Source: Octopus sinensis (taxonomy: Eukaryota). From it: a DNA stretch of 64,000 nt. Position numbers and translations under genes: made by a program. The DNA lies in contig NC_043003.1 in the NCBI RefSeq assembly GCF_006345805.1, positions 41,044,001 to 41,108,000 on the forward strand. The letters are read 5' to 3'. Shown one piece after another: positions 15,517 to 54,759 of the stretch. Position 1 is the stretch's first letter, and every line of letters begins with the position of its first letter. The notes under the pieces are model-generated. The model was not told the origin of the DNA, ran no database searches, and was given only the letters and a program-made list of their open reading frames with translations.

Positions 15517-15547
<31 letters not shown>

Positions 15548-15585
15548 TATGTATGTATGTATGTATGTATGTATATATATATATA

Positions 15586-16885
15586 GTAGTAACAGAAAGG
15601 AGGAATTTCGATTATCCCTACGTGGTGAGTTGTAATATATATAAGAAATTAAAGAAGGAAAATATGCATATTTCGCATAGTTTTAATATCATTTTTAATA
15701 TATCAACCGGTTTCGCTCTCGCTATTCATGATATTATGTTTTACTTATTTGAATATGATATTTACGAGTGAATTACTTTAAAAGTAGAAAAATAAAGGGA
15801 GGTAATTGGTTATCATTATTATTGTTATTCTTGTGGACATGGGAGATAACTGTTCAGCTTTCGGTAAGGGGAGGAGAATATCTATGTACAGACAAAAAAA
15901 AAAGTTTTCGAAAAACTTGTTTAGTGAGGGGATTTATGTACAGTGATATAATCGTGAATTGAAATATGTAAAAAGAAAAAAAGTTGGTTATGCATGCATA
16001 TTATGACGTGTTCTGTATTTTTCAATGAAAAAAAGTTTATTTAAACATTCTTGTGGAGAGATTGTATCTTTGCACTGGTAGAAGGGGAAAACTGTGTAAT
16101 TTGGTTTGATGTTATCTGCACATGTTTGTATATGTTCACTGAAAGGAATTTTCCTGCTTTGCGGGAAACGGGTTTACTCTTTATGTAGAGTGGTTCTCTT
16201 TCTCAAAGTCATACTCGTCTGTCCAATAAAGTTGTGTCCGCAACCCGAGCAGGTTATTACATAAATTAGGTTCTCAGAGGCACAAGTGAAACCAGTTTTA
16301 ATTGTGAACTTCTGTCTTTGTTTGAAAAGGAAATCCGAGCCTTCAAGTAGGTTGGGGCAGGTGCCACAGTTTGGTTGTTTGTAAAGCTTCGCATTTGTTA
16401 GCAGTATCTTTAGCGATTTGTCTTGTTTTTGCATTTGAGGAGTTTGTGTGTTTTCAAGATATCGTTCATTTTTCGATCTTTAGTTAGTAAAGGAAGATTT
16501 TTCACGATAGTGTTGAATGCCTCACTGTTTCTAAGGTTGGGTGTTGATATAAATAGTAATGTTTTGAGATGAGATGTGGTACTATGTTTTGTTGTTCTTA
16601 GTGTTTTTATGTCTAATTGTTTGTCACGTTTAATTTTCTCGTCGATAAATGAGGGTGGATATAGTCTTTCTATTAGCGTTGATTTGAGGTCTTGAAGACG
16701 AAAGTCCCGAGTTGTTCTATCAGATACTATTGTGCAAATCCTTTTTGCCAAATTGAAAGGGATATTTATTTTGATGTGTTTCGGGTGGCATCAGTTAAAG
16801 AGGAGATATTGTTTTGAATCAGTTGGTTTATAACAGATGTCAGTTATGATTTGATTGTTGACTTTTTTTATCATGATGTCTAAGG
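15586..16885 (-). mobile_element. 5'-truncated Penelope-like element (RT thumb + GIY-YIG endonuclease + 3' HHR)
   Basis: Minus strand LDIMIKKVNNQIITDICYKPTDSKQYL..CHPKHIKINIPFNLAKRIC, then CGTCP..ENLIYVITCSGCGHNFIGQTSMTLRKRTTLH (GIY-YIG); stops and frameshifts. Confidence 0.92.
15700..15734 (-). ncRNA. Minimal type I hammerhead ribozyme, A3-U8 variant
   Basis: Minus strand ATATC-ATGAATA-GC-GAGA-GC-GAAA-CCGG-TT-GATAT: 5-bp stem I, GNRA-capped 2-bp stem II, palindromic CCGG loop III, GUU site. Confidence 0.75.
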
Positions 16886-17992
16886 TATCTCTTCCAATTT
16901 TCTCTAATGTAGAGGTAACCAAGTCACAAATAAACAACTTAGAAACATTCTTCGGTAATCACTCTAAAGTTAAATGTTATAAAGTTAAATGTATAAGGTA
17001 CAACACAGCATTAGGGTAAAAATCGTCTTTGCAAAACTTTTCTTCTTTCTCATTGGAAAGGAAATTTCACAATACTTTCTGCTTGCTGCGCAGCATGAAA
17101 AGGAATATGTGTATATCTATTCGCATGTAAATGAGATCATCTGAGTTTAAAATCCGCGATGCAAAAAGTAAAGTAAACTGAATGCAATTGGCATACAAAC
17201 TATAGAGATTTCTTCCTGAAAAAGCACATGCTTTGATAGAAGTATTATATAACGCGGTGGTGTTTCTACAAAAAGGCACTAACAAATCATATAAGGCTTG
17301 CAAGGCAACTCTTAAAAGAAGCCTCACCAGCACAACACGTCATCATTCTCAATTGGCAAACACTACACCACCTTCAGAGCATATTTGGAAATCGAAAAAC
17401 AAAGATATAAAAGGTAAAATCTCTACTATGTAATAAACAGTAATAGATAACGGAAAGGCATACAACTACGAATGGGATAACAATGGTACTCGAAACCAGA
17501 CAAAATAGCTATTATGCGTTGCTTTACATTAATCTTACATATAGAAATAGAAAGAAATTCCTGCATTCCAAAATGAGTCCAAAGATCTGTTAGGATTTGA
17601 AAGACAAAACCGTTTAACTGCATAGATTCCTTACATTCTTTTTCATTTGTTATACGTTGATGTGTAACATCGGCTGAAGCTCCATAATGATAGAACATAG
17701 TTTTGCATTTCAGTAGGTGTATTGCTTATGATTTATATATGTTATGCAAACGCACAAACCAGGTGTCCAGGTGCATGCACGTATATTTGAAAACTGCAAA
17801 ATATAGATGAACTGGCATGATAAAAAATGTCACCGCCAATATATGTGTGTGTGTGTATGTGTGTTTGTGCGTGCGTGCGTGAGTGTGTGTGAATGTATGT
17901 ATATACTTATATATATGCATATATACAATAATAATATATATATATATTAATATATACAGATATATGTGTGCGTTTGCAGAATAATACGTATG

Positions 17993-18065
<73 letters not shown>

Positions 18066-18985
18066 ATATATATGTATGTATATATAAATACATGTCCAAA
18101 TTCTCGTATAAATACGCAAATAAAATTAGGCATACAATCCTGTGCACAAAAATATATAAAAGTTTATACATACATACGCACACAGACAAACACACACGCA
18201 TATATAATACATACATATATACATACATACATGCGCACACACAAATATAACCATGCTTATATATACACGAAGTTAAAAGTCGATTACATGGCGGTTTATC
18301 TCTACAAACGCGATATAGTTAATTAAAATCTCATTTAATCGTGATTTTAATATATTTTTTATAATAGGGGCATTTATCATTTCGAGGCAATTTTCCCAGC
18401 TTGAAATATAATTTATATTTTTGACGTTATTCTCTTTTCTCGACTTCAAATAAAATTATCAGTGCTTATAATATTTAAAAGAAATCATGATGTATGCAAT
18501 AAATACCAAAATATACACACAGACACATACACAAACACACTCACAATAACCACACAATTTTAATCACTATCACACACTCAGAAACAAAACGCATAGAGAT
18601 TAATTCACGAAACAACCACAAACATGCACATAGAGTCACAAGCAATCACGCATGTAAAATCACACGCATGCGTCTACACGCATACACACACACGCAAATT
18701 ACATACACATACATATATAAATGCATACATTAACACGCACACACACACTTGTACGTATGCATATAAATATCTACTTGTATGTGTGTGTGTGTGGCTCTCT
18801 GCTTACATATGTGGGTATATGTATATGTATGACATATGTGTATGCATCTGTGCATAAAAATACATATATACATTTACTTACGTACACATATTTCGATGTA
18901 TAGCTTGCATATATATGTAACTAAGATCACGCACATTCGGAGATACATCAAGGATGTGTGTTTGTGTGTGTGCGTGTGTGTTTTG

Positions 18986-19049
<64 letters not shown>

Positions 19050-19256
19050 CTGTCTCTTATACTCTCCTTTTATACGCACACAACTTACACACACATATAT
19101 ATATATATACATAAACACAAACACATATTGTGTGTAGATGTTGGAGTATATGCACGCTATAATTGTGCAAAAATATGATAACCAACCAAAAAGAAGCATA
19201 CACACGTAGAAACACGTAGACTTGCACACGTGTATGAGTATGTGTACGTATATTGA

Positions 19257-19303
<47 letters not shown>

Positions 19304-19304
19304 A

Positions 19305-19346
<42 letters not shown>

Positions 19347-19379
19347 CATATATATAATATATATTTATATGTATATATG

Positions 19380-19463
<84 letters not shown>

Positions 19464-19529
19464 ATATATATATTATATGTATATATGTATATATATAATA
19501 TATATATATATACATACATACAGAGATAC

Positions 19530-20735
19530 AGGAACAGGTTGATCATAAGATCCTTCTGAGAAAGCTGTCCAATTGGTGTCACTGGAAAGCTGCTGCAATG
19601 GATCAAGTGCTTCCTGTCTAACAGAACCCAACATGTTGTAGTCGAAGGAGTCAAATCCAGCCCAGCCAAAGTCAGCAGTGGTGTCCCACAAGGCACTGTG
19701 TTGGGCCCACTTCTCTTCATCATCTACATAAATGATATTACTGACACCATCAAACACAGTAACATCAGAACCTTCGCTGATGATTCCAAGCTCCAGAAGG
19801 TCATCAATGGTGTGGATGACCGAATAAACCTTCAGTCAGACCTACTGGCTGTTGTCCAATGGGCGGAAAAGAATAACATGTTGCTAAATGAAGACAAATT
19901 CGAACTGATCCACTTTGGAAGGGAGGACGCTCTGAAACTCCCATACTCACTTCCTTCTGGAGAAATTCTCATGGCATCCAACAACATCAGAGACCTGGGA
20001 GTAACAGTGGACAACAACATAAGCTGGGCTACACATATAAGCAGCAAAGTTGACATGGCCCGCAGAATGTGTTCCTGGATACTCAGAACCTTCCAGTCGA
20101 GAGATTCCCACGCTATTATCCTTCTCTTCTCCACTTTTGCCCGACCCCACCTTGAATACTGCTGTCCACTGTGGTCTCCCTACACAAAACAAAATATTAT
20201 GAGAATTGAAGCTCCCCAAAGGTCAATCACAAAATAGATAGATGGCATGTCAGACCTTGACTACTGGGGTAGACTAGAGAAGCTGAAATTGTATTCACTG
20301 CAACGACGCCGTGAACGCTACATTATCTGTATGATGTGGAAAATATTCCATCAGCACTGTCCGAATGATGCTGGCATCACCTTCAAAATGCATCCAAGGC
20401 TTGGACCACGTGCCATCCGTCCACAACAAAAATCTAAATCACATCACATAACGACAATACGGCACAACTATTTCACCTCAATTGGACCCGCTCTCTTCAA
20501 CATTACACCAGGACACGTCAAAAAAGAAACTGACCACACAAAATTCAAGAAGTCTTTGGACAAATTCCTTCAAACAGTACCGGACAAACCACCCACACCC
20601 GGATATGTCTCCGCAAACAATAACTCTCTGCTCGAATGGGCCTTGGTGCCCAAATCCTGAACTGAAAGACTTCGCCAGGTGGTGCTATTAAGTTAGACAT
20701 GGCCTGGGCCAATACTGACCAAAAACCTTTCTAAG
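19530..20735 (+). mobile_element. 5'-truncated CR1-type LINE, relatively young (RT C-terminal half + 3' UTR)
   Basis: [78 protein letters not shown]. ORFs 19698-20237 and 20247-20660 are in frame across a single TAG. Confidence 0.93.
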
Positions 20736-21082
20736 TTATATGTGTATGTAAGTGCATGTGTGTGTATACTTTACTTATACCTGCATATACCATTCATGAA
20801 TGCATACATGCACATGCGTACACGTATGTACCTACATAATTACTCACGCATATAAATATAAATATGTGCAGGTGACGTAATCCTTCATTTCTTACGTTTC
20901 AGCCCCAATGCATCCTCCATGCGCATTCTCGCACTAAGCAGGCATTGATTTTAGAAACGGAGGCCGTTTTTTTGTAAACGTCTATACGTAATGATTTCTC
21001 AGGAGTGCTGTTAAAGCTTACGGCTTTTCAAACAACGCATCCAAGTTTAGCGCGATGTACAAATCTACAAATTACTCTCTCT

Positions 21083-21160
<78 letters not shown>

Positions 21161-21164
<4 letters not shown>

Positions 21165-22340
21165 GCCATTAAGAAGAAAATGTCCGATTTTCTTATGCAC
21201 CAAGTTTGACAGTCATTAACGTTAATGTTTTATCGAGACAATTCTTTGTTTTACAACATTGAAGAGTTACATCATCAGTTTTCGAAAAGCAGTCCATGAT
21301 ATTTGACTATGTTATGAGTTTTCTCTTGTAAATAAATTTTGGGAACCCATTGATAGATAAAAAATAATTCGTCTTTTTTATGAATATGAGTTCCGTCATA
21401 GGACCAATGCATCCCAGACAGCTCGAAACATCAATGAGTCGCTTGGTGAAGATGTGACGAATTAGCGCACTGTAAGTCGATGGTTTGAGAAGTTCCGGTC
21501 TGGTGACTTTACTGTCGAAAATCAGCCGCGTAGTAGACCTGAGACCAAGGTGGATAAGGATGAGCTGGAGAGTGTAGTGGAAGCGGATACATCACAAACT
21601 ACGCGTGAGTTAGCAGCAAGGTTTGTCGTTTCTATTCCAATTGTATTGGACCATCTGAAACAAATCGGGAAGATGAATAAATTGGACAAGTGGGTACCAA
21701 AGGAACTAGAAGAGCATGAAATGACACATCGTCTTGAAACTTGCTGTCACGACATAATAACGAACAATTTTCGCATCGTATTTTCATGTGGGATGAAACA
21801 TAGATTCTTTTCAATAATAGTATATTCACCAAAAAAATTAATGATGTCTGTTTGGTGGACCAGTGCTGGTGTCATCCATTACCGTTGCATGAGACCTGTT
21901 AAGTCATTGCAGCCGATGTATACATCAACCAACTGAATGAAATGTTGAGTGAACTTTCAATTAAAAAACCGAGATTGGGCCAATTCTGTTGCAAGACAAT
22001 ACTCGACCACATTCTAAATAAAGAACGTTACTCAAGCTACAGAAACTGAACTTGGAAGTTCTCTGTCATGCACCATATCTACCAGACCTTGCACCAACTG
22101 ACTATCACATTTTCCTGTCATTAGATAAAATTTTGTAAGGAAAAAAATTTTAAGTCTGAAGAAGATGCAAAAACAGCCTTTCGTGATTTCATCACCTCTT
22201 GCGGCCGGCATAAATAAGCTACGGATAAATACGCTATCAATAAAATGGCAAACTTTTGTTGATAATTTAGGTACATACTTTGATTAAATGCATTGCTTTT
22301 TGTTTGAGAAAATCAGGCTTCATATTTTTCACAGCTTGCA
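21161..22340 (+). mobile_element. Decayed mariner (Hsmar1/SETMAR-like) transposon
   Basis: RWFEKFRSGDF..SQTTRELA..WVPKEL..KKLMMSVWW..LLQDN..PYLPDLAPTDY; degenerate TIRs; left end in (TA)n. Confidence 0.9.
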
Positions 22341-22820
22341 GAACCTCGGAAAGTCTATTTTCTACGCATTTCGATCGAATCAAGAACGAGTTAACGCGTG
22401 ATCTCATATCGACAATGCAAACTTAATACAATCAAGGTATCTTTAGCCTGATGTGTAGCTTATGGGCTACCCTTCGTTTGGGTAATTTATTACATCCGGG
22501 GTTCCGCTCTGTAGTCTGGGTTTTCTCTACTCCACTCCCTAATATTTTAGATGCTTATTCGCATATACATCAACTCCTGTTGCTAACTGTGAACAGTAAA
22601 AATTAGCTTTTTTCAGCTTATCATACGTCCATACTGGAATAATTCACAGCCTTCTGCGCTGATAAACCACTATTGTCCCAGAAATATGTTTTTTTCATCT
22701 ACGGATTGCTTGAAGCTCACTAACTCCCTACACTTTGATCCTTGGATCTTACCTTTACACATACACGCGCGCGCACACACACACCAGCCCCCACCCTACC
22801 CAATATATATTTACGTTTAT

Positions 22821-23110
22821 GAAGGGTGTGGCTTAGTCATTAGGATATTCGGTTCATGATCGTTAAGTCATGTGTTCGATCACAGCGGCGCGTTGTGTTG
22901 TTGAACAAAACACTTTATTTCACGTTGATCCAATCAGCTGGCTAAAATTGATTGTACCTACGCTGTGTCACGCTGAATTCACCCTAAGAACTATGGTAGT
23001 GGTACGCGTGTCTGTAGAGTGCTTTGTCATTTACAGATCAATTTCACGAATGAGCTGCTCCCGTTGATCGAATCAACTGGAACCCTTGTCGTCGTAATTA
23101 ATGGAGTGCC
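22821..23110 (+). mobile_element. tRNA-derived SINE
   Basis: A-box tggcttagt, B-box gttcgatc, then gcgttgtgttgttgaacaaaacactttatttcacgttg, shared with 50345-50680. Confidence 0.7.
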
Positions 23111-23204
23111 ACTCACACACACACAGATACAGTACGTGATCGACCATACTCTCGGGTGTTGTTATTTATCGCTGGTCACAATGTCACACTGCGTTTTGCA
23201 ATTT

Positions 23205-23430
23205 TTGTTTTTAGCTTTCAAATCATGCCACTCTGCTGGCTAGGTAGGCAGGCTGACATTACCCTTCATACGAGAAGTGGTCTGTCGCAAGATTAACTAT
23301 TTACAGCCGAAGGGACTGGGGCAATATTAAAAGGAATATCTTGCTTAAAAGGACACAACGCGCCGCCGGTCTTGGAGGCGAAACCACGATCTCACGTCCT
23401 TGAATGCAACCGCCTTAATCATTAGACCAC
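23205..23430 (-). mobile_element. tRNA-derived SINE
   Basis: Minus-strand head gtggtctaatgattaagg..; tail ctagccagcagagtggcatgatttgaa is shared with 33958-34250. Confidence 0.65.
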
Positions 23431-23511
23431 ACACTTTCACTTGTATGTCTGTACATATACGTGTGTGTGTATGTGTATGGTGTATGTGTGTGCATATATA
23501 TGTATATATGC

Positions 23512-23589
<78 letters not shown>

Positions 23590-24139
23590 AGAGAGGAGAG
23601 AGAGAGAGATACATACATACATAGATACTATGGTACTGTCAGGCAACAACTTTAGGGGCATTAATTATCAAAAATAAGACGTTACATATAAATTATTTAC
23701 TTCAGTAAAGTGAATCCGTTAGGCCGAGAGTTTGTGCCTCCACGTTTAACGATACTGATCTTTTTAATTAATCAAAATGAAATGTTATTTACATTAACAT
23801 GACTTGTTAAAAAAAAATGGAGTGAAGAAGCACTCTTCTACTTGTTCAAGCACGCATCTCACGTCCAAATCATGTGATTTTAATCATTTTTCAACAATGG
23901 AAGAGGACATATTGTGTGATTTAATCAAAAGACTATAGCTTCATGCATGCACTCATTCACACTGGAAATCCATTAGAAAAACATAATAATATTGGCCCAC
24001 ACAAACATACATATATACATGCATTATATACATAAACACATGCATATAAATATTTGTATATACATATATGTATATATATTTGTATGTATATATTCATATA
24101 TATATACATATATATATATATATAATATATATATAAAAT

Positions 24140-27100
24140 ACAAAATGGGACAAGAACACAAAACATCCAGATAGGTGATATAAAGAAAATAAGGACGGAT
24201 AATTAGGAGTTTTCTTTCATGAGTCGAGTACCAGATTAGCTTCGCAATTTCGACGAAGGAGAACCAGAGGAGGAAACAAAAACCTCGATGGGAGTTTACT
24301 TTGACAAAATTCAGGCCTGACATCTCCATCACCCTGTGTAAACAATCCCGTTACAAAGCCAAATGCGAAACTATCGATGGTCAAATTGGAGACGAAATAT
24401 CAAAACAAACGACTGTAAATATAGCAGAACAAATGCGAAAACTATGATATCTCAAAAGACGAAAGCAGATCAAGAAAGTTATAGCAGCAGAATCAACTAT
24501 TTCTCAACAAATATGCTGCAAATTTTGGTAAAGACTCTAGGACCCTAAGTAATAGCATTGAAAGTGGACAATCCCACCAACGTAACAATCGCCAGATCCC
24601 GTGGCAACATGAACACTCGTTTCACCATGAATTCATGATTTAATACGGCAAGAACCCTTCTATTTTTTGTACTCAAACACACTAATGCAGACAATATGAA
24701 CAAAAAGCACAAACAAGATAGATATGCCTCTGGTCAGGTCATTAGGAATAGAAATAATAGATCATTTTCAAGGGCTCAATAGAGATTACCTACAAGATAC
24801 TGGGCAAAAATCCGATCTAGATCTGGAAGTAAACCTAGATCATTTCCTATGTTGTTAAAACAATACTAACAAGAAATTGAAAAATAACATAATACCAAAA
24901 ACAGGACAGAAAACACAACGAAACAAATTGAAATACCACAAACAAAACACGAAGTCCATGAAATAAGCATCAACAGGCATAAAAATCATAAACAGAGAAT
25001 AATCCATTTTTTAACGTCGGACAACAAACATCGAAGAAAGAAAAAATCCAAGATGTAACATACCTAAAACCACTAAACGTATTGATCCTAAAATACTTAA
25101 GTTATCCAAAAGAGATCTTGACAATGATGAATTCCAACTTCTGTCGAACTTCAATATCCTCCTGCTCAACCTACACCAATAGTCAACCACCAAGAACTAA
25201 AAGAGGATATCTACACATTCTGTCGTAGGTTACTAATAAAAGTAATGAGATTGATGAATCGCTAGTAAAAAATAGATCGAATTTCACCCCATCAAAAAGG
25301 AGGAATAACTATCTTGACCAATACATTGATATGCTGTCTAAATTTCCCCTTAGACGCAACACTAATGTTTGGCGAAACATTAACAAATCGGAGACGTCTG
25401 TACTTAAACGTATGCAAAACGATCAGACAATGACAATTAAAAAGCAGATAAAGGGAGTGCAATTGTTATTATGGCCGTCGAATACTACAAGGATTTGGCT
25501 GAGGATCAACTGCAGGACACAACCTGTCGTGAAATAACTTCAAATATAGACCGCTACATCAGGAAGAAGATCAACTACCTGGTGTCAAAACACAACTCAC
25601 TTACCGATAATGAAAAAGAGTACATCACCAATTTCGAACCAAAACGCAGCAACGTCTACGGTTTACCAAAAATAGATAAGTCAAAAGATATTCAACATGC
25701 AGTGAAAGAACAAGAAAGAGAGTACATACAATTACTATATCCAAAAGACTTAAAACTTAGATCTATTATAGATGGTCCAGCATGCCCTAACCATCGTCTA
25801 AGCAATTTTATTGACATTGTTTTGAAGCCACTCTGTATCTACATACCTAGTTTCATCCGGGATCACGTCGACTTTTTTTCCTTAAACGAATTCACTTTTA
25901 CTTAGTTTTGATGTGGAAAGCCTTTACACCAACATTCCACATGATTAAGGAACAAAGACGATTAAATACTGGGAAGAAAAACATGATTCCTATCAAATTC
26001 ACAGTGCAATCTATATTGGACATAGTTAGACCTATACTGGAAAACAACCCATTCTTTTTCAATGGAAAAAATTACATCCAAATTAAAGGCACGGCGATGT
26101 GAACGAGATTTGCTCCCGTTAACGCGCACTCTGTAATGTGATACTTGGAACAACAACTCTACCAAAAAGTAGAGGAAAGCTATAGCACTATATTTAGAAA
26201 GTATATTAAAAAGGCATGGAAAATATACCTTGACGACTGCTTCATAATCTGAACAGGATCTCTAAATACTCTGGAAGAGTTCAATATCCTCTTGGACAAA
26301 CTACACCCATCTCTACAATTTACAAAAGTGATCAGTAGTAACAAATTACCATTCTTTACCAAAAATATATACTATTAACACACGGATACTCATCAATACA
26401 GGAAATTTAAGTCGTGCCATCCACCACATACAAAACGCAAGATCCCATATTTCCTAACCAGAAGAATATGTACCATTGTAGTAGATACGAATATAAGGAA
26501 CAAACGCCAAACAGAAGTAAGAGGAATTTTGCTCAAACAAAAATACCCGTCTCTACTTATAGAAAATGGCAGACAGCGGGTTATAAAAATACCCATATAA
26601 CAAATGAGGACAACCTACAGAAGAAGGAAGCAAGAAAAAGTCATATCATTTATAGTAACATACAGCCAATGTCACCAGAATATCTACAACATTGCTAAAG
26701 CAAACATACCAATCATTGATCAAAGTAATGAATTTAAAGATATAATCACGGATCGAGATGTGGTTCTTACTAAAAGATAGCATAAAAACTTGTACAAAAT
26801 TATTAACAAAGGCAAAGTTTGATCTTAGCAACGAAGACCAATCATTCACTGTATCTAAATGCAATGATAGCCGAGTGGCACATGCCTATTCATACATACG
26901 GGTCAATATATGAACACAAAAGCCGGAAAAATATTCACGAACGTAAATATGAACTGCAGAAGCAGAAATTTAATTTACTGCATCAAATGCCCAAATTGTG
27001 AAGATCAATATGTGGGTCAGACTGGAAATGTACTATCAGAACCTTTACATGTGCAAATTAGAAACCCAGAACTCCGTCAGTTACCCTTGAACAATATGTG

Positions 27101-27360
27101 GTCGCAAAATATTTATAAGTTTTCCATTCCACAAACTACACAGTACAAATGAAATCTAGAGAAAAATCAGAGAAAAGAACTTTATTGATAAATTCCAACT
27201 CAAGCTAAAAATAAACAACAACAACAACAATAATAATAATTATATAGGTACTATTTCTACTGCTACGGCAACTACCACTTACAATTACAATAATTCTAAA
27301 GATATGCATGATGACGATAGCAGGAAAATACTACCTAAATCTAGAGAAACGTCAGTAAAA
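24140..27360 (+). mobile_element. Near full-length decayed Penelope-like element
   Basis: RT motifs VYGLPKIDK, LRSIIDGPACP, FDVESLYTNIP, NNPFFFNGKNYIQIKGTAM and KIYLDDCFI; GIY-YIG NLIYCIKCPNCEDQYVGQTG; many stops and frameshifts. 5' boundary uncertain. Confidence 0.9.
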
Positions 27361-27539
27361 ATAATCTTACTGAGGTTCTAAAGTTCTATTACCATAGCTA
27401 CACCTAACACCACCACAATCACAACCACCACCACCACCACCAGCACCAATGACAACAATATTAAAGGTGATGATAACGGTGATAATGATTATTGAAATGT
27501 AAAAACTCCCTGGAAATATTTACATTTCCAAAAAATAGC

Positions 27540-27789
27540 CAAAGCAATTACTGAACTGAAGGGAAGGATTATGGCAGCATTAAACAAGGTGACCGTCCAG
27601 AAAAGTTGCAGGAGATTCCGAAGTCGTCTAAAAGCCGCGGATGAAGTCAATGGCGATTTTATCGAATAAATTTACTCTAGTATTTCAAGATATTTTTATG
27701 TAATTTTGGTAAATATGTCAGTTACAAGCGACGTCAGTGTTATTTTCACTTTTGCATTATTTAGATGACAGTTTATTCAACAACCCCTG
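27540..27789 (+). mobile_element. 3' fragment of a Tc1/mariner (maT-like) element
   Basis: ELKGRIMAA..TVQKSCRRFRSRLKAADEVNGDFIE* followed by a TIR-like end ..ttattcaacaacccctg. Confidence 0.7.
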
Positions 27790-27901
27790 TGCGTAAGTGT
27801 GTGTGTGTGTTTGTGTGTACATATACATACATATGTATATATATTATATATATACACATGCATACATACATACATATATATATATATATACATACATACC
27901 C

Positions 27902-27963
<62 letters not shown>

Positions 27964-28037
27964 TTATATATGAGGATAATATCGATATTTAAGTGTCGAA
28001 ATTATCAAGTGGCCAGCATGAAAGAAATACCTTACAA

Positions 28038-28085
<48 letters not shown>

Positions 28086-28416
28086 TAACAAGCGTGGTCA
28101 TATTGAAATAGTCACGTCTGTTTCGAACATTCATCGATATTGAGGACATAGTGCAATATTTAGAATGGATTGGATGATTTTAAAGAATTATGAACTCAGT
28201 CTATCCAATAATTTCTTTCATTAGCAGTTATGATCTGAGGAATTTGAAGCCACATTTGTTTCAATCCATCCATCCATTCATCCATACATACACGTGCACA
28301 CATATATATGTATACATACATCCATGTATCAATCTATCTTCGTATATATAAATATATATATATATATGAACACACGCACATATAAACAACTATATATGGC
28401 AAATGAAAGGTAAATG

Positions 28417-28453
<37 letters not shown>

Positions 28454-28766
28454 GCAGGTGATAAAAGAAGACTCTTTAATATTTAAATAACGTAATAACA
28501 TGTATATTTACTCTGACACCTAATTGTTTTTAATTATTTTTAATACTTCATTTGGGATTTTGCTGCTAATATATTTTCATTTCCGCATTGTTTTTATATA
28601 TATATTTCAGTATAATTTGAAGCACGAATGTTGAGAGCATATATATATACATACACACACACACACACATTTATATATAATATATATATATATATACACG
28701 CTTGTTACTGTATAGATATATATATATATATATATATAATATATATATATATACATACACACACAC

Positions 28767-28837
<71 letters not shown>

Positions 28838-29974
28838 CATGCGTATTTGTGTGTATATGCGTTAATATATATTATTTATGTCTCGTATACACTGGTTTAT
28901 GTATATACAATTGTCTGAATGCTTGTATCCGGTTGTGCTTAATGGTAGATGTCATATGGGAATTGTGCAGACAATTGAAATTAATTACTTCCATTATTTA
29001 ATTCTTAATTGTTAATGAAATTATTAATCTAATTATGGAAAATGTAACAGAAGCATTTATTCATAATTAATATGCATAATATACCCACATCCCAACATAT
29101 AGCAATCGGAATCAACAAATTTATGAGAAAAATTAAAGTAATACACATGAATGACTTCTTTCTATATGACAATTACAAATAACTTTCGATAAAAGTTATA
29201 CCGAAACTAACACTACTTAATTATATAATTAACCATGCAAATACTACGCTGAATTACTAAGTCATTGTAATTATTAAAAATATAAATATACTCTTGATGA
29301 CCATTTGTCTTAAGTTTTATGATGTGGGTGGATATAATGATTTTATTTAACAGCATAATGCCGGCAATTTGAAGCGAAGTGTGAATTATATCAATCCCAG
29401 TACTTGACTGATATTTTCAGTGATAAATTGGAAATCTGACGAACGCAAGATTTCAAATCGGAACGTAAATTATAGAAATAAATGTGACAAATTATTTTGC
29501 TTGACGTTCAAATGATTCTGCTCTATGTTGTCAGTTTCATATGTTCTATATTGTATCCCTGTACATTTTATATTCCCTACTATCTCTGCAACTATCTAAA
29601 TACGTATCACTATTATACGAGTTCGTATTGAATTGCTATGTCGACTCAATCTGTACATTATTGAGGTAAGTTATACTCAGTCACCTATCATTATTACTTC
29701 AGATATATATATATATATATATATGGTAAAATACCATAGTAATATTTTATTCTACGATTTGAAGCGACAATTTTTAAATACAAACTTCTTGGACAAAAAT
29801 AAATAAACATGAAAAACAAACCCTCACTGAATCTCCAAAAAGCAAATGCCTTACCTGGTAGTTGTGCTTCAGTTTTTAAATAATCCACAATTTTGGTATA
29901 CAGCGACGTGACTCTTAGCAACCTACATACCACATAGCAATTCCTGCGCCTATTTGTATATATATAAATATATA

Positions 29975-30130
29975 TACGACGAGCTCCTTCCAGTATCCAT
30001 CTACGAAATTGACTCACAAAGCATTGTTGGCCCGAGACAATAGTAGAAGACACTTGCCCAAGGTACCATGCAGTGGGACTGAACCCAAAACCATGTGGTT
30101 CGGAAGGAAGCCTTTTACCACACAGCCACA
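29975..30130 (-). mobile_element. tRNA-SINE head with CORE-like CCTTGGGCAAG
   Basis: Minus strand gtggctgtgtggtaa..ggttcagtcccactgcatggtaccttgggcaagtgtcttctact. Confidence 0.8.
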
Positions 30131-31402
30131 GTCTGAAAAATGATGAGTTAACCCTAGCCAGAATCCAACCCACAGATCAACGCAAACATGGCTCCTTGCA
30201 CATCCGATTGGGCCAAATGTTCAGCTATCTATTTCAGCTAATATATGAGTCTTCCATAGTGGCTCCGTAACTTAGAAAACCTTTCGCGTTTATTTACAAA
30301 TATCTTACATGTAGGTATATATATATATGTGTGTAAAAGAACGCTACAGACGACAATAAAACATCCGGACAGGTAAACGATACTAAGACGGACAGAAAAA
30401 GCAACAATAAAAGAAGATGAAAAACAAGGATGGGTCATTCGTAGCCTTCCCTTATCAGTCAAGTTTACAGATCATCCTTACAGTTTCATCCAGTTACACT
30501 TGAGACTTTTCAAATATGACTGGCCCCATAAATCTAAGCTAAGAGCATTAAATTTTGGCGGAGAAGGCAAGCGTATGTGCACGACAAGAAAGACAAAATA
30601 AAACGGAGAAAATGTTACACAATTACAAATGCAAACACCAAGAAAATAACAAGTGTCTTTTGACCAATAAAGACGAATCGATTTGAGCTGGCGTGTGTAG
30701 AGTGAAAGCATTGAAGCAGGAACTTAGGAGATGAACATAAGAGATGAAATTCAGGAGACAGGAATATGAGATGCTATGTGACCGGCAGTCGAGCCAGGAA
30801 ATAAAGATCATACTTGGCCTAACACAGGTCACGTGGAAGGAGAGGAAAGAGGTAGGGGCAGAAGGTATGAAGAATTAGGGGAAGAACGAGAAAGAGGAAA
30901 TCAAAGAGACATAGAGAAAAGTTCAAGGGATATAAAAGAGGAGGGAAAGAAGGGAGATTAATGAAAGAGGAGGCCAAGAAAGGTGAGAGAGGGGGGGAGA
31001 GAAAAAGAAAAGAGGAAAGAAAGAATAAAGTATGAGGGGTACTACAAGAAAGTGTAAAAGAGTCGTAGAGAATTTAAATACATACTTACAAGGTGAGCCA
31101 AAGTGTACGTACGTAGCTAAACAAGCCTGTCAATATAAATATTCTCCTGAATTGAACTGAGACTGCCAGCCGCCACTGACCATTCAAAATACGACCATCA
31201 GGGCACTCCCAGATTCTCCCAACCCCCTTTCCTCACCAGCCTTCCCTCTACTACCCTACCAAGAACTCACAACTACCTCGAACACACAAGTGCAAACAAG
31301 GGAGTCAGAGAAAGGCAGAATGCCACTTAAATCTGAACACTACTATAGAAATATTCTTTTAAAAAAACTTTTCTTCTAATTTTTCTAAATTTAATTATTA
31401 AT

Positions 31403-31450
31403 CGTTACAGTTGAAAAGGTCTCAAAATGACCGAAACCGGTACTGAAATG
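31403..31450 (+). ncRNA. Minimal type I hammerhead ribozyme, U3-A8 variant, at a PLE 3' end
   Basis: CGTTACAG-TTGAAAA-GGTC-TCAAAAT-GACC-GAAA-CCGG-TA-CTGAAATG; upstream KYSPELN* (~31137-31161) resembles a PLE ORF terminus. Confidence 0.8.
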
Positions 31451-31567
31451 TTCACTATAAAATTATTTTAGCATTTTCTATTTTTTACTTGTTTTTTCAT
31501 ATATATATATATTATATATATATATATGTCCCAAAAATGGAACAAGAATACAACAGGCGACAATAAG

Positions 31568-31645
<78 letters not shown>

Positions 31646-31692
31646 CATATATATGCATGCATGTATGTATGTATGTATGTATAGATAGATAA

Positions 31693-31752
<60 letters not shown>

Positions 31753-31822
31753 AAACAGTAAGACAACAACAGAAAGAAAGAGACCACGATATTATGTAAA
31801 TAGAGGCATTTTCCGATGGCCG

Positions 31823-31883
31823 GATAACTGAAGAGATGGCGGCGTGGATTTCCACCTCGGCATCCGAAACTCGGCGTTTTATC
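31823..31883 (+). ncRNA. Type I hammerhead ribozyme motif with a long stem II
   Basis: GATAA-CTGAAGA-GATG..GTGGA-TT-TCCAC..CATC-C-GAAA-CTCGGCG-TT-TTATC in a ~170 bp insert between (GATA)n and (TA)/(CA)n. Confidence 0.7.
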
Positions 31884-31939
31884 ATGGCTACCGAATAATA
31901 GTCAAATATTACATTTACAGGTATATATATATATACAGA

Positions 31940-32034
<95 letters not shown>

Positions 32035-32992
32035 GTATCAATCGCAGCTAAGTACTTTATCCCGAATTTCGTAAAATCATGTTGCAATGTTGACTTTTTC
32101 CTTTTATATAAAGAGTACAACAATTGTTATGATTTACTGGATCGAGCAGATGTAAATTGAATGTTATTATTTTATGCAGATCTAGTCCCGTTTTGGTCTG
32201 TACTTAAGGAATTCAACAATCAGAATCTGGTGTGACAACGGGAAACGGAGTATGCAGATCGATTTAGACCGAGAAACGTTCCACTAAATTCCAATGAGTT
32301 TCGACTCTCAAATTTCGATCAAAGAGAATTTAGTATTCCTCCACATTAAACAGAAAGAACTTGGCAGAGCGGATTAAGCGTGGGATAGAACATGTAGACA
32401 GAGAGTTGCGAAGCGATCATTTTCACTATGTATATCCACAATTGCTAATTTCAAAACAAATGTTATACTTAAGATGATTTATATTCATAATTTCCGTTTA
32501 TTCGTTGAGTTATCTAAAAGAGACAGAAACATGTAAAATAAAGCAAAATAATAAATTAATATTGTTTTGATCGATCCAGCTACGTATTAGAAAATGGAAA
32601 AAGAAGAAAATTAAATTAGAATTTTATAAATAATGTGTTTTGATTTCAATTTTAAATTGTATCGTTTAATTTTTAGGAAGAAATGTATATTTCTATGAAC
32701 AAATTAAAACATAGACTGACTTCTAATGGTATATGAACTACTCCATTGTTAAATTCGGTGCTTTCTGTTTTTTATCAAGTCTTCTCCCACTTCCTTTAAA
32801 CTTAATATCCCTGTCTCTGTATGAGACGTATTAATCGTCGCTGCGCTCCTTGATTTTTTTCTTTCAATCATTCCCCTCATCTTTGCTTCTGCATGCTTAC
32901 ATTCATACAGAAATACATACGTACCTATTTACGCATATATATGTATAAATATGCATATGTATACATATATATGTATACATATATATGTGTGC

Positions 32993-33023
<31 letters not shown>

Positions 33024-33329
33024 GGGTGGGGGTGGGGGTGGGGGGTGTTTATAAATATATATATATATATATATGTGTGTAGCTATCTATCTATATAACT
33101 CTGTGTGTGTGTAGTTTTAATATACTTAGAGTTTGTATGAAAATTTATCACCGTTACTTCAGCAGTTTCATGATTTTCGAAATTAATATGAAGTGTAAGA
33201 ATCTGGAGTTATGCCATAATTGTCTCGACTCTCATAAAAAACTATTATTATTAAAGAAGAGAAGACTGAGCCTAATATGTGCCTATATACATATACATAC
33301 ATTCATGTGTGTGTGTGTGTGTGTGTGTG

Positions 33330-33918
33330 TAGCAAATCCGCCACCCACAATAGAGACAGTTAAAGGTGAGTGAACACATAGAAAGGTGTGCCAGGAATCT
33401 TAATCCCAATTTCCAAAACTTCCCCTTCTATCAATGTTCACAGAACACCACAATGCAACAAAGGTTGAATAAAGAGGCATTTTTCATCAATAAATATCTC
33501 CCCCAACTAAATATGAACACACAACTCAATACAGAACACCACTAACCCTTCAATTTAAACAACTAACCCCTATACACTCCCTACACCATTCACATTTCTA
33601 AATCCAGAACTACTTACTCCCTTACAAATAATCTTTTTTTTCTCAGGAACTATTAGACATGACACCGTGTATTAGACGGTGTATACAAAGCAATGAATAG
33701 CTTTGCGGAAACCATGGTATGCTTTGTTTTCTGACGTTATAATCATCTCATAATAATGACTTTTATTACTACCTCAGTCCATCTAAATGTATATATTTGT
33801 CGTTACCTTTCATAAAAAAAAACTTTTTTTATTTACAATGTGAATTTTCGTTGATTTTTTCATATTTTACCCTTACATTTCCACGTGTAGTTTATATTTT
33901 CTTTTTCAAGCATATTTC

Positions 33919-33930
<12 letters not shown>
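33330..33930 (+). mobile_element. 3' end of a Penelope-like element (GIY-YIG C-terminus + HHR)
   Basis: QIRHPQ*RQLKVSEHIERCARNLNPNFQNFPFYQC..RLNKEAFFINKYLPQLN, homologous to the C-terminus of the 15586-16885 element. Confidence 0.85.
33685..33727 (+). ncRNA. Minimal type I hammerhead ribozyme, A3-U8 variant
   Basis: ACAAAGCA-ATGAATA-GC-TTT-GC-G-GAAA-CCATGG-TA-TGCTTTGT: perfect 8-bp stem I, palindromic CCATGG, GUA site; one extra G before GAAA. Confidence 0.75.
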
Positions 33931-54565: not shown

Positions 54566-54759
54566 CAGTTCTATATTTAGAGATGAGGAATTATGTACAT
54601 TATTTACATTATTTACATTGTTTATATTTGACGAATATTTGTCTTCATCTTGTTTGTTGTTAACACAACGTTTCGGCTGATATACCCTCCAGCCTTCATC
54701 AGGTGTCTTGAGGAAATTTCGAACCTGGGTTCTCATTTGTAAGGTATTTTTCAATGTTA

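Follow-up and report, generated by a model that had tools for sequence, protein, structure and literature searches.

Hammerhead ribozymes in Penelope-like elements (PLEs), their dependence on dimers, the U3-A8 core pair and a stem II of two base pairs (bp) are already known. In the parts of the PLE hammerhead study considered here, U3-A8 is reported from Schistosoma PLEs with ~1,300 matches, and the 56 representatives comprise 53 with C3-G8, two with U3-A8 and one with U3-G8, with no A3-U8 or G3-C8 and no cephalopod among them (Cervera and De la Pena 2014, PMC4209133). The section of Perreault et al. (2011, PMC3088659) drawn on here describes natural U3-A8 covariation, calls a two-pair stem II common and records that an insertion in GAAA is tolerated. 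According to the excerpts at hand, the 3-8 pair has been seen only in the extended, active hammerhead fold (PMC3884650), and C3G/G8C rescue together with protein-assisted cleavage was shown for the hammerhead of PAc, an Anolis Poseidon PLE (Frangieh et al. 2024, PMC11167929). Here we describe hammerhead motifs with an A3-U8 core beside PLE remnants in 64,000 nucleotides (nt) of the Octopus sinensis genome (contig NC_043003.1, positions 41,044,001 to 41,108,000; this whole stretch is called the window below). Their sequences make it likely that they are type I minimal hammerheads in the terminal repeats of Neptune-like PLEs, in which the 3-8 pair switched from C-G to A-U and a weakly self-cleaving fold was selected in the source elements.

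Two motifs with an AUGAAUA core, site 1 and site 2, had been picked out in an original prediction made from the window's letters alone, and both were found again (Table 1). Their triplets are GUU and GUA, respectively. The type I core of PLE hammerheads (U4 G5 A6, A9, G12 A13 A14, A15.1-U16.1 and a position 17 other than G) is present at both sites, with one extra base before or after G12 at site 2. The C3-G8 identity is absent from both, its place being taken by another Watson-Crick pair, A-U. Stem I is paired at both sites although its sequences differ (5 bp at site 1, 8 bp at site 2), loop III is a palindrome compatible with dimer formation (CCGG and CCATGG), and helix II has 2 bp at each site, lacking the extra base after A9 of the Cervera consensus. 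The predicted GC/GC stem II holds for site 1 (GC-GAGA-GC), where G10.1-C11.1 stands directly 5' of G12, but not for site 2 (GC-UUU-GC with an extra G before GAAA), where that arrangement requires treating the extra G as a bulge or as a base inserted after G12. As had been noticed, both motifs lie 3' of homologous GIY-YIG C-termini, which are 50% identical, at distances of 260 nt (site 1) and 175 nt (site 2).

A descriptor with free bases at positions 3 and 8 and a palindromic loop III gave five matches in the window, compared with 0.125 per window in 40 shuffles; one of the five was a TA-repeat artefact. The expectation that standard searches would miss such motifs was borne out, since Rfam returned no hammerhead family at either site at E values up to 10. 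For the whole window, the best 150 of 280 Rfam matches were microsatellite-driven microRNA matches, with no hammerhead among them.

A genome-wide search with the site-like pattern, as the original prediction had proposed, returned 910 matches in the 2.72 Gb genome against 4 for reversed-pattern controls. Independently of the core pattern, copies of the families of site 1 (family A) and site 2 (family B) were sampled by their flanking DNA alone. Family A had A3 in 29/29 copies, U8 in 27/29 and C17 in 21/29, so the U17 of site 1 is a private C17U change; in family B, A3 and U8 were found in all 24 covering copies, four of which are duplicates of one locus, and a second sample gave A-U in 18 of 19. 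The residues U4 G5 A6, A9 and A13-A15 were also kept in the flank-selected copies, and no family majority seen has G at position 17. Contigs from four further organisms carry C at position 17; for three other organisms that cover positions 3 and 8 the listing gives no different letter, a weak observation because the table concerned also omitted the change at position 17. A3-U8 is therefore the family state in A and B rather than a product of copy decay: genome counts, flank-selected copies and shuffled windows rule out decay or chance as its source, and neither family has the C3-G8 consensus that would have spoken against the prediction.

Within one PLE clade, positions 3 and 8 change together and between them show every Watson-Crick pair, and stem I covaries too, in agreement with the covariation originally proposed. 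With the frame fixed (a 2-bp GC/GC stem II and GAAACC; lists counted by hand), 1017 matches comprised 874 with A-U, 35 with U-A, four with G-C and none with C-G, the remainder being 91 single-step changes from A-U and 13 others; independent positions would give 2.7 U-A. Loose-frame searches with a CCGG loop, in which gap ranges differ between the pair searches, gave 9373 matches for U-A (62 in controls), 1446 for A-U (237), 168 for C-G (42) and 125 for G-C (11), which with that proviso makes non-canonical cores about sixty-fold commoner than C3-G8 in this genome. With more than 1,400 loose matches, A3-U8 is not, in this genome, the rarity it had been taken for. Among the first 100 of 193 matches whose stem II starts with GUAA, 88 were A-U, eight G-C and four mismatched. 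When 12 hand-chosen intact copies whose stem II region spans 8 bases were aligned, paired cells made up 97.5%, a value reached in 0/500 shuffles and compared with 22-43% in slid controls; the 3-8 pair and five of the five stem I pairs had changed on both sides, and 98.3% of stem I cells were paired.

Protein trees built from the thumb and GIY-YIG remnants, with families A and C thinned, united families F (U-A, some C-G), A/C (A-U), E (U-A), D (G-C and A-U) and B (A-U) in one clade, the outgroups of which are C3-G8. The number of changes of the 3-8 pair ranged from four to six depending on the rows included, with six over 50 rows and all four pairs inside the clade. A single clade of A-U rows was rejected (p 0.002), a single clade of G-C rows was not (p 0.116), and the trees differ on nesting. 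The match counts by pair reflect few events. The 3-8 pair belongs to the active fold, and its persistence through several independent double changes offers comparative evidence for a selected catalytic geometry.

The same small number of events could also be produced by a vestigial ribozyme drifting under AT-biased mutation, many copies having inherited a handful of fortuitous double changes. The counts are not independent and about five or six events suffice; C-G to U-A takes two transitions in a genome of 34% GC (the value in the window); mismatched single copies exist (the 91/1017 above, and one C3-A8 copy in L388); and copies decay at about the rate of their flanks, core against flank identity being 97.9% and 94.7% in family A and 94.8% and 92.2% in family B. 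However, every family majority seen is a pair, including a step from U-A to A-U that takes two transversions, the G-C families run counter to the AT bias, and stem I has been rewritten yet remains paired in each family. A scan not conditioned on these bases, described next, likewise recovered only paired motifs. Drift is already disfavoured on these grounds, and we regard it as very improbable.

That scan left positions 3 and 8 free and covered 94 PLE loci from metagenome contigs and contigs of metagenome-assembled genomes (MAGs). Sense-strand motifs were found in 34 of the 94 loci, and all 32 distinct ones were Watson-Crick at 3-8: 26 C-G, four U-A, one G-C (L323) and one A-U (L332). The antisense control gave four matches, three C-G and one A-A. 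The A-U motif of L332 lies ~140 nt after its open reading frame (ORF), in a metagenomic PLE unrelated to the octopus clade and on a single contig without family support. The loci L290 and L296 combine C3-G8 with a 2-bp stem II and a CCGG loop, so the short stem II is independent of A-U; it is not the special feature once supposed, having also been described as common (PMC3088659, in the section cited above). Several of the PLE ORFs in L370-L383, on contigs of bacterial MAGs, have hammerheads; these ORFs are probably host DNA carried into the bins.

The elements that carry the motifs fit a Neptune-like PLE with an endonuclease (EN+), a label that rests on the linker and the TA targets. The remnant of copy A at 15991..16404 is 48-54% identical to RT/GIY-YIG proteins (RT, reverse transcriptase) of 750 amino acids (P0001, P0003). 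A long relative, L163, matches 196 proteins of at least 736 residues, most of those listed being ~750 amino acids long with an RT and often a GIY-YIG domain. The order of RT followed by a C-terminal GIY-YIG domain is present in these elements, as seen from these homologues, from Pfam RVT_1, above the cut-off in L161, and from GIY-YIG, below the cut-off in L163 (E 0.006). A C-X4-C-xx-C linker and a CCHH motif (CxxC..H..H) were found in L163 and relatives, and the part of Craig et al. (2021, PMC8557442) at hand gives the CX2-5CxxC linker and CCHH motif as marks of Neptune/Nematis-type EN+ PLEs. Members of the clade are inserted at TA repeats and form tandem or inverted partial copies. In the full-length clade members L389 (U3-A8) and L290 (C3-G8), a copy of the motif stands at each side of a unit of 4.37 kb or 3.70 kb, just 5' of the first ORF. 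Among the loci retrieved, inverted pairs of A3-U8 motifs were recovered, but a full element with A3-U8 motifs in direct orientation at both ends was not. Both window copies are 5'-truncated, promoterless fossils that occur singly, lie on opposite strands and have different palindromes, and are therefore probably inert themselves.

Fold energies, computed without tertiary pairs, were unfavourable for the family A monomer (+2.5 kcal/mol), and the dimer hammerhead fold through the palindrome was the cofold minimum for the tested copies of families A and C. The predicted minimum fold of site 1 pairs U17 with A3, which could resemble the C3-G17 trap (PMC3884650, same excerpt). A loop II-stem I tertiary contact conserved across families was not evident. 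Truncated copies end ~70 or ~180 nt (family A) and ~200 nt (family B) beyond the predicted cut.

Under the reading that we favour, source elements would have been selected to retain a weakly active self-cleaving fold while 3-8 stays Watson-Crick. Within a tandem transcript, the loop III palindromes would bring two copies together, the element's own protein likely assisting folding as in the lizard PLE, and unit RNAs would be trimmed or released by a cut after position 17. Cleavage would be slow and dimer- or protein-assisted, judging from the portions of PMC4209133 and PMC11167929 at hand, and for most insertions reverse transcription would begin 70-200 nt 3' of the motif, on RNA that was left uncut or had been re-ligated. 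The 5' ends of copies do not pile up at the cut, which is consistent with reverse transcription on uncut or re-ligated RNA.

The lineage of site 2 is irregular. Among the first 100 of 184 matches, stem II ended with GAC in 18, with GCC or GCT in nine, and with GCG, GCA or GTG before GAAA in 30 and before UAAA in 43. Judged from these sequences, the stem II of site 2 is a derived, irregular form. The 43 copies with GUAAA make up the largest subfamily, which derives from site 2's form (98/90 support), is the most uniform of the lineage (95% pairwise flank identity), and later acquired a compensatory change in stem I as well as a GUC triplet. Either the register has shifted, the G after GC being G12 followed by a single inserted base, or the element spread despite losing G12. 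Changes of G12 strongly reduce hammerhead activity, according to the passages used from a review (PMC8495972), and the GUAAA subfamily may be dead as a ribozyme.

PLE hammerheads cut poorly in vitro and their mutants still insert, and several observations weigh against strict selection for cleavage. The chief one is that the GUAAA subfamily, with G12U or an unusual insertion, is the youngest of its lineage and was amplified. None of 29 family B 5' ends lies at the predicted cut and there are no exact junctions, while family F has three 5' ends at the cut against zero and seven at control positions, although the lack of an excess does not show inactivity. In the excerpt of PMC11167929 used here, hammerhead mutants did not impair PLE insertion in vitro. 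In the site 2 family, one copy is predicted to fold best as a hairpin that joins stem II to the 5' strand of stem I, and at site 2 itself this hairpin ties with the dimer; several G3-C8 families keep just one regular stem II pair. The comparative data also lean towards structure: the patterns used to choose most tree rows, and the 12 aligned copies, demand the core, those 12 were picked by hand as intact, and four degenerate rows (three of them non-Watson-Crick singles nesting inside A/C) were omitted from the later trees.

Much of this would be explained if the folded RNA were retained as a landmark for protein binding, template dimerisation or positioning of the RT start, with the 3-8 pair kept for shape and cutting no longer needed. 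The GUAAA subfamily amplified and then made its compensatory change, the 5' ends bear no cleavage footprint, inserts end at a fixed distance 3' of the motif, and the main template of the lizard PLE is uncut RNA with no reads ending at its cut site (PMC11167929, same excerpt). A shape-only role sits less well with the absence of G at position 17 from family majorities, with a move to C there in the GUAAA subfamily, and with the retention of U4 G5 A6, A9 and A13-A15 in flank-selected copies; in that lizard PLE the hammerhead is dispensable for insertion and the minimal template lies 3' of much of it. We consider the landmark explanation rather unlikely, and the two roles are not exclusive. Selection for a weakly self-cleaving fold remains our preferred reading.

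A bolder extension can be offered only tentatively from these sequences, namely that this clade amounts to a mutational scan of the hammerhead active site made by nature, that all four Watson-Crick pairs at 3-8 function in vivo on a stem II of 1-3 bp, that the site 2 lineage is register-shifted and that the GUAAA core still cuts. If so, CUGANGA searches would be missing core variants that outnumber canonical hammerheads in the genomes of some animals, and a new search would be due in PLE clades recorded as lacking hammerheads.

Two further hammerhead motifs, absent from the original prediction, are present in the window, with position 3 at 31411 (+) and 54702 (-). The first belongs to family F, a young family of this PLE clade, and sits in a short piece of its 3' end (31118-31523, +); this fragment is 99% identical to L389, and the family is very abundant, with several copies having open RT-endonuclease frames of 784 codons and some sister copies carrying C3-G8. 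A pyrimidine-rich stretch ending in CAG abuts position 3 in family F (window 31385-31410; L173, L174), much as an intron ends right beside the hammerhead of Drosophila virilis Penelope. No PLE coding remnant was found beside the fourth motif (about 54662-54707). A third, more distant PLE remnant with most of the RT and the GIY-YIG domain lies at 25170-27210 (+), and no hammerhead motif was found downstream of it.

Table 1. Hammerhead motifs and remnants of PLE copies A and B in the window
Feature	Position	Strand	Details
Site 1 hammerhead motif (family A)	15700..15734	-	A3 at 15729, U8 15724, A9 15723
Site 1 stem I	15734-15730 / 15704-15700	-	5 bp
Site 1 stem II	15722-15715	-	2 bp with GAGA loop (GC-GAGA-GC)
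Site 1 GAAA to position 17	15714-15705	-	GAAA 15714-15711, palindrome CCGG 15710-15707, U16.1 15706, U17 15705
Site 1 predicted cut	between 15705 and 15704	-	
Copy A 3' extension beyond predicted cut	15522..15699	-	TA-repeat ends ~+95 and ~+205 from A3
Copy A broken linker Zn-finger (CX2-5CxxC type) and GIY-YIG endonuclease C-terminus	15991..16404	-	One in-frame stop
Copy A broken RT thumb and linker	16422..16918	-	5'-truncated near 16920
Third hammerhead motif	31408..31445	+	U3-A8, 4-bp stem II, CCGG palindrome; position 3 at 31411
Copy B last 60 codons of GIY-YIG domain	33333..33518	+	5'-truncated, inserted beside TG repeat
Site 2 hammerhead motif (family B)	33685..33727	+	A3 33693, U8 33698, A9 33699
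Site 2 stem I	33685-33692 / 33720-33727	+	8 bp
Site 2 stem II	33700-33707	+	GC-UUU-GC and extra G
Site 2 GAAA to position 17	33708-33719	+	GAAA 33708-33711, palindrome CCATGG 33712-33717, U16.1 33718, A17 33719
Site 2 predicted cut	between 33719 and 33720	+	
Copy B 3' extension	33728..33921	+	Stops at the family's shared 3' end before TA repeat
Fourth hammerhead motif	about 54662-54707	-	Canonical C3-G8 minimal hammerhead, long stem II, CG loop; position 3 at 54702

Tandem arrangements were seen elsewhere. A non-LTR (long terminal repeat) retrozyme was rejected for the window motifs, both of which are single copies after coding remnants rather than short non-coding tandem units. Three-copy tandem A3-U8 arrays with ~544-nt and ~576-nt spacing (L170:3155-4244; L435-L437) are candidates for A3-U8 retrozyme-like derivatives or local duplications. 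In L107-L117 (e.g. G000:C1:182078660-182079399), retrozyme-like tandem or inverted repeats of ~355 nt each carry a C3-G8 hammerhead with a 4-bp stem II, and U3-A8 versions with a similar stem II also occur. The 5' ends of family B (L394-L422) crowd at the motif, with 19/29 between -71 and +9 of A3, while a further five, scored at +44, reflect a small duplication that breaks the alignment. The family B structure may cause reverse transcription to stall nearby. ORF1 and the RT ORF overlap in different frames in L389:4355-4415, L290:1294-1372 and L296:2094-2169, and all three overlaps hold a run of six T followed by AGA, by its sequence a likely -1 frameshift site; a frameshifted ORF1 of PLEs is mentioned in the Fig. 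1 legend of PMC8557442.

Przybilski and Hammann reportedly found in 2007 that engineered ribozymes tolerate any Watson-Crick pair at 3-8, which would make activity here unsurprising to specialists. Lunse, Weinberg and Breaker are reported to have described in 2017 that PLE hammerheads with a short stem III cleave as dimers, and their large sequence set could already contain natural A3-U8. No natural A3-U8 or G3-C8 family was found in the literature searched, a search that did not reach Lunse 2017, Przybilski 2007 or Hammann 2012, and nothing on such core variants was found in literature combining hammerheads with octopus or cephalopods. A single clade that holds natural A-U and G-C families in high copy number, as well as U-A and C-G ones, looks new. 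Together with GUAAA it forms a natural set of variants for side-by-side comparison, and it exposes a gap in current searches, Rfam being blind to both sites and non-canonical cores being in the large majority among motifs with a CCGG loop.

The octopus motifs share with the PLE hammerheads of Cervera and De la Pena (PMC4209133) the type I topology, palindromic loop III, predicted dimer, G10.1-C11.1 (at site 1) and, in full-length clade members, location in PLE terminal repeats. Helix II is longer in those hammerheads and A9 is usually followed by an additional base, whereas the octopus helix II has 1-3 bp and no such base. In the section of Perreault et al. drawn on here (PMC3088659), A3-U8 and G3-C8 are not named, and the insertion after A13 (GAUAA in S6, as read from figure text) differs from the GUAAA of the octopus subfamily. 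PAc offers the closest functional parallel in the excerpt of PMC11167929: as seen or proposed for the octopus, the motif lies just upstream of the RT start that sets the 3' ends of inserts, the template is uncut RNA, and there are two alternative 3' ends. PAc differs in belonging to the Poseidon clade and in having C3-G8, and the G3-C8 pair that was engineered there as a rescue occurs naturally in the octopus clade.

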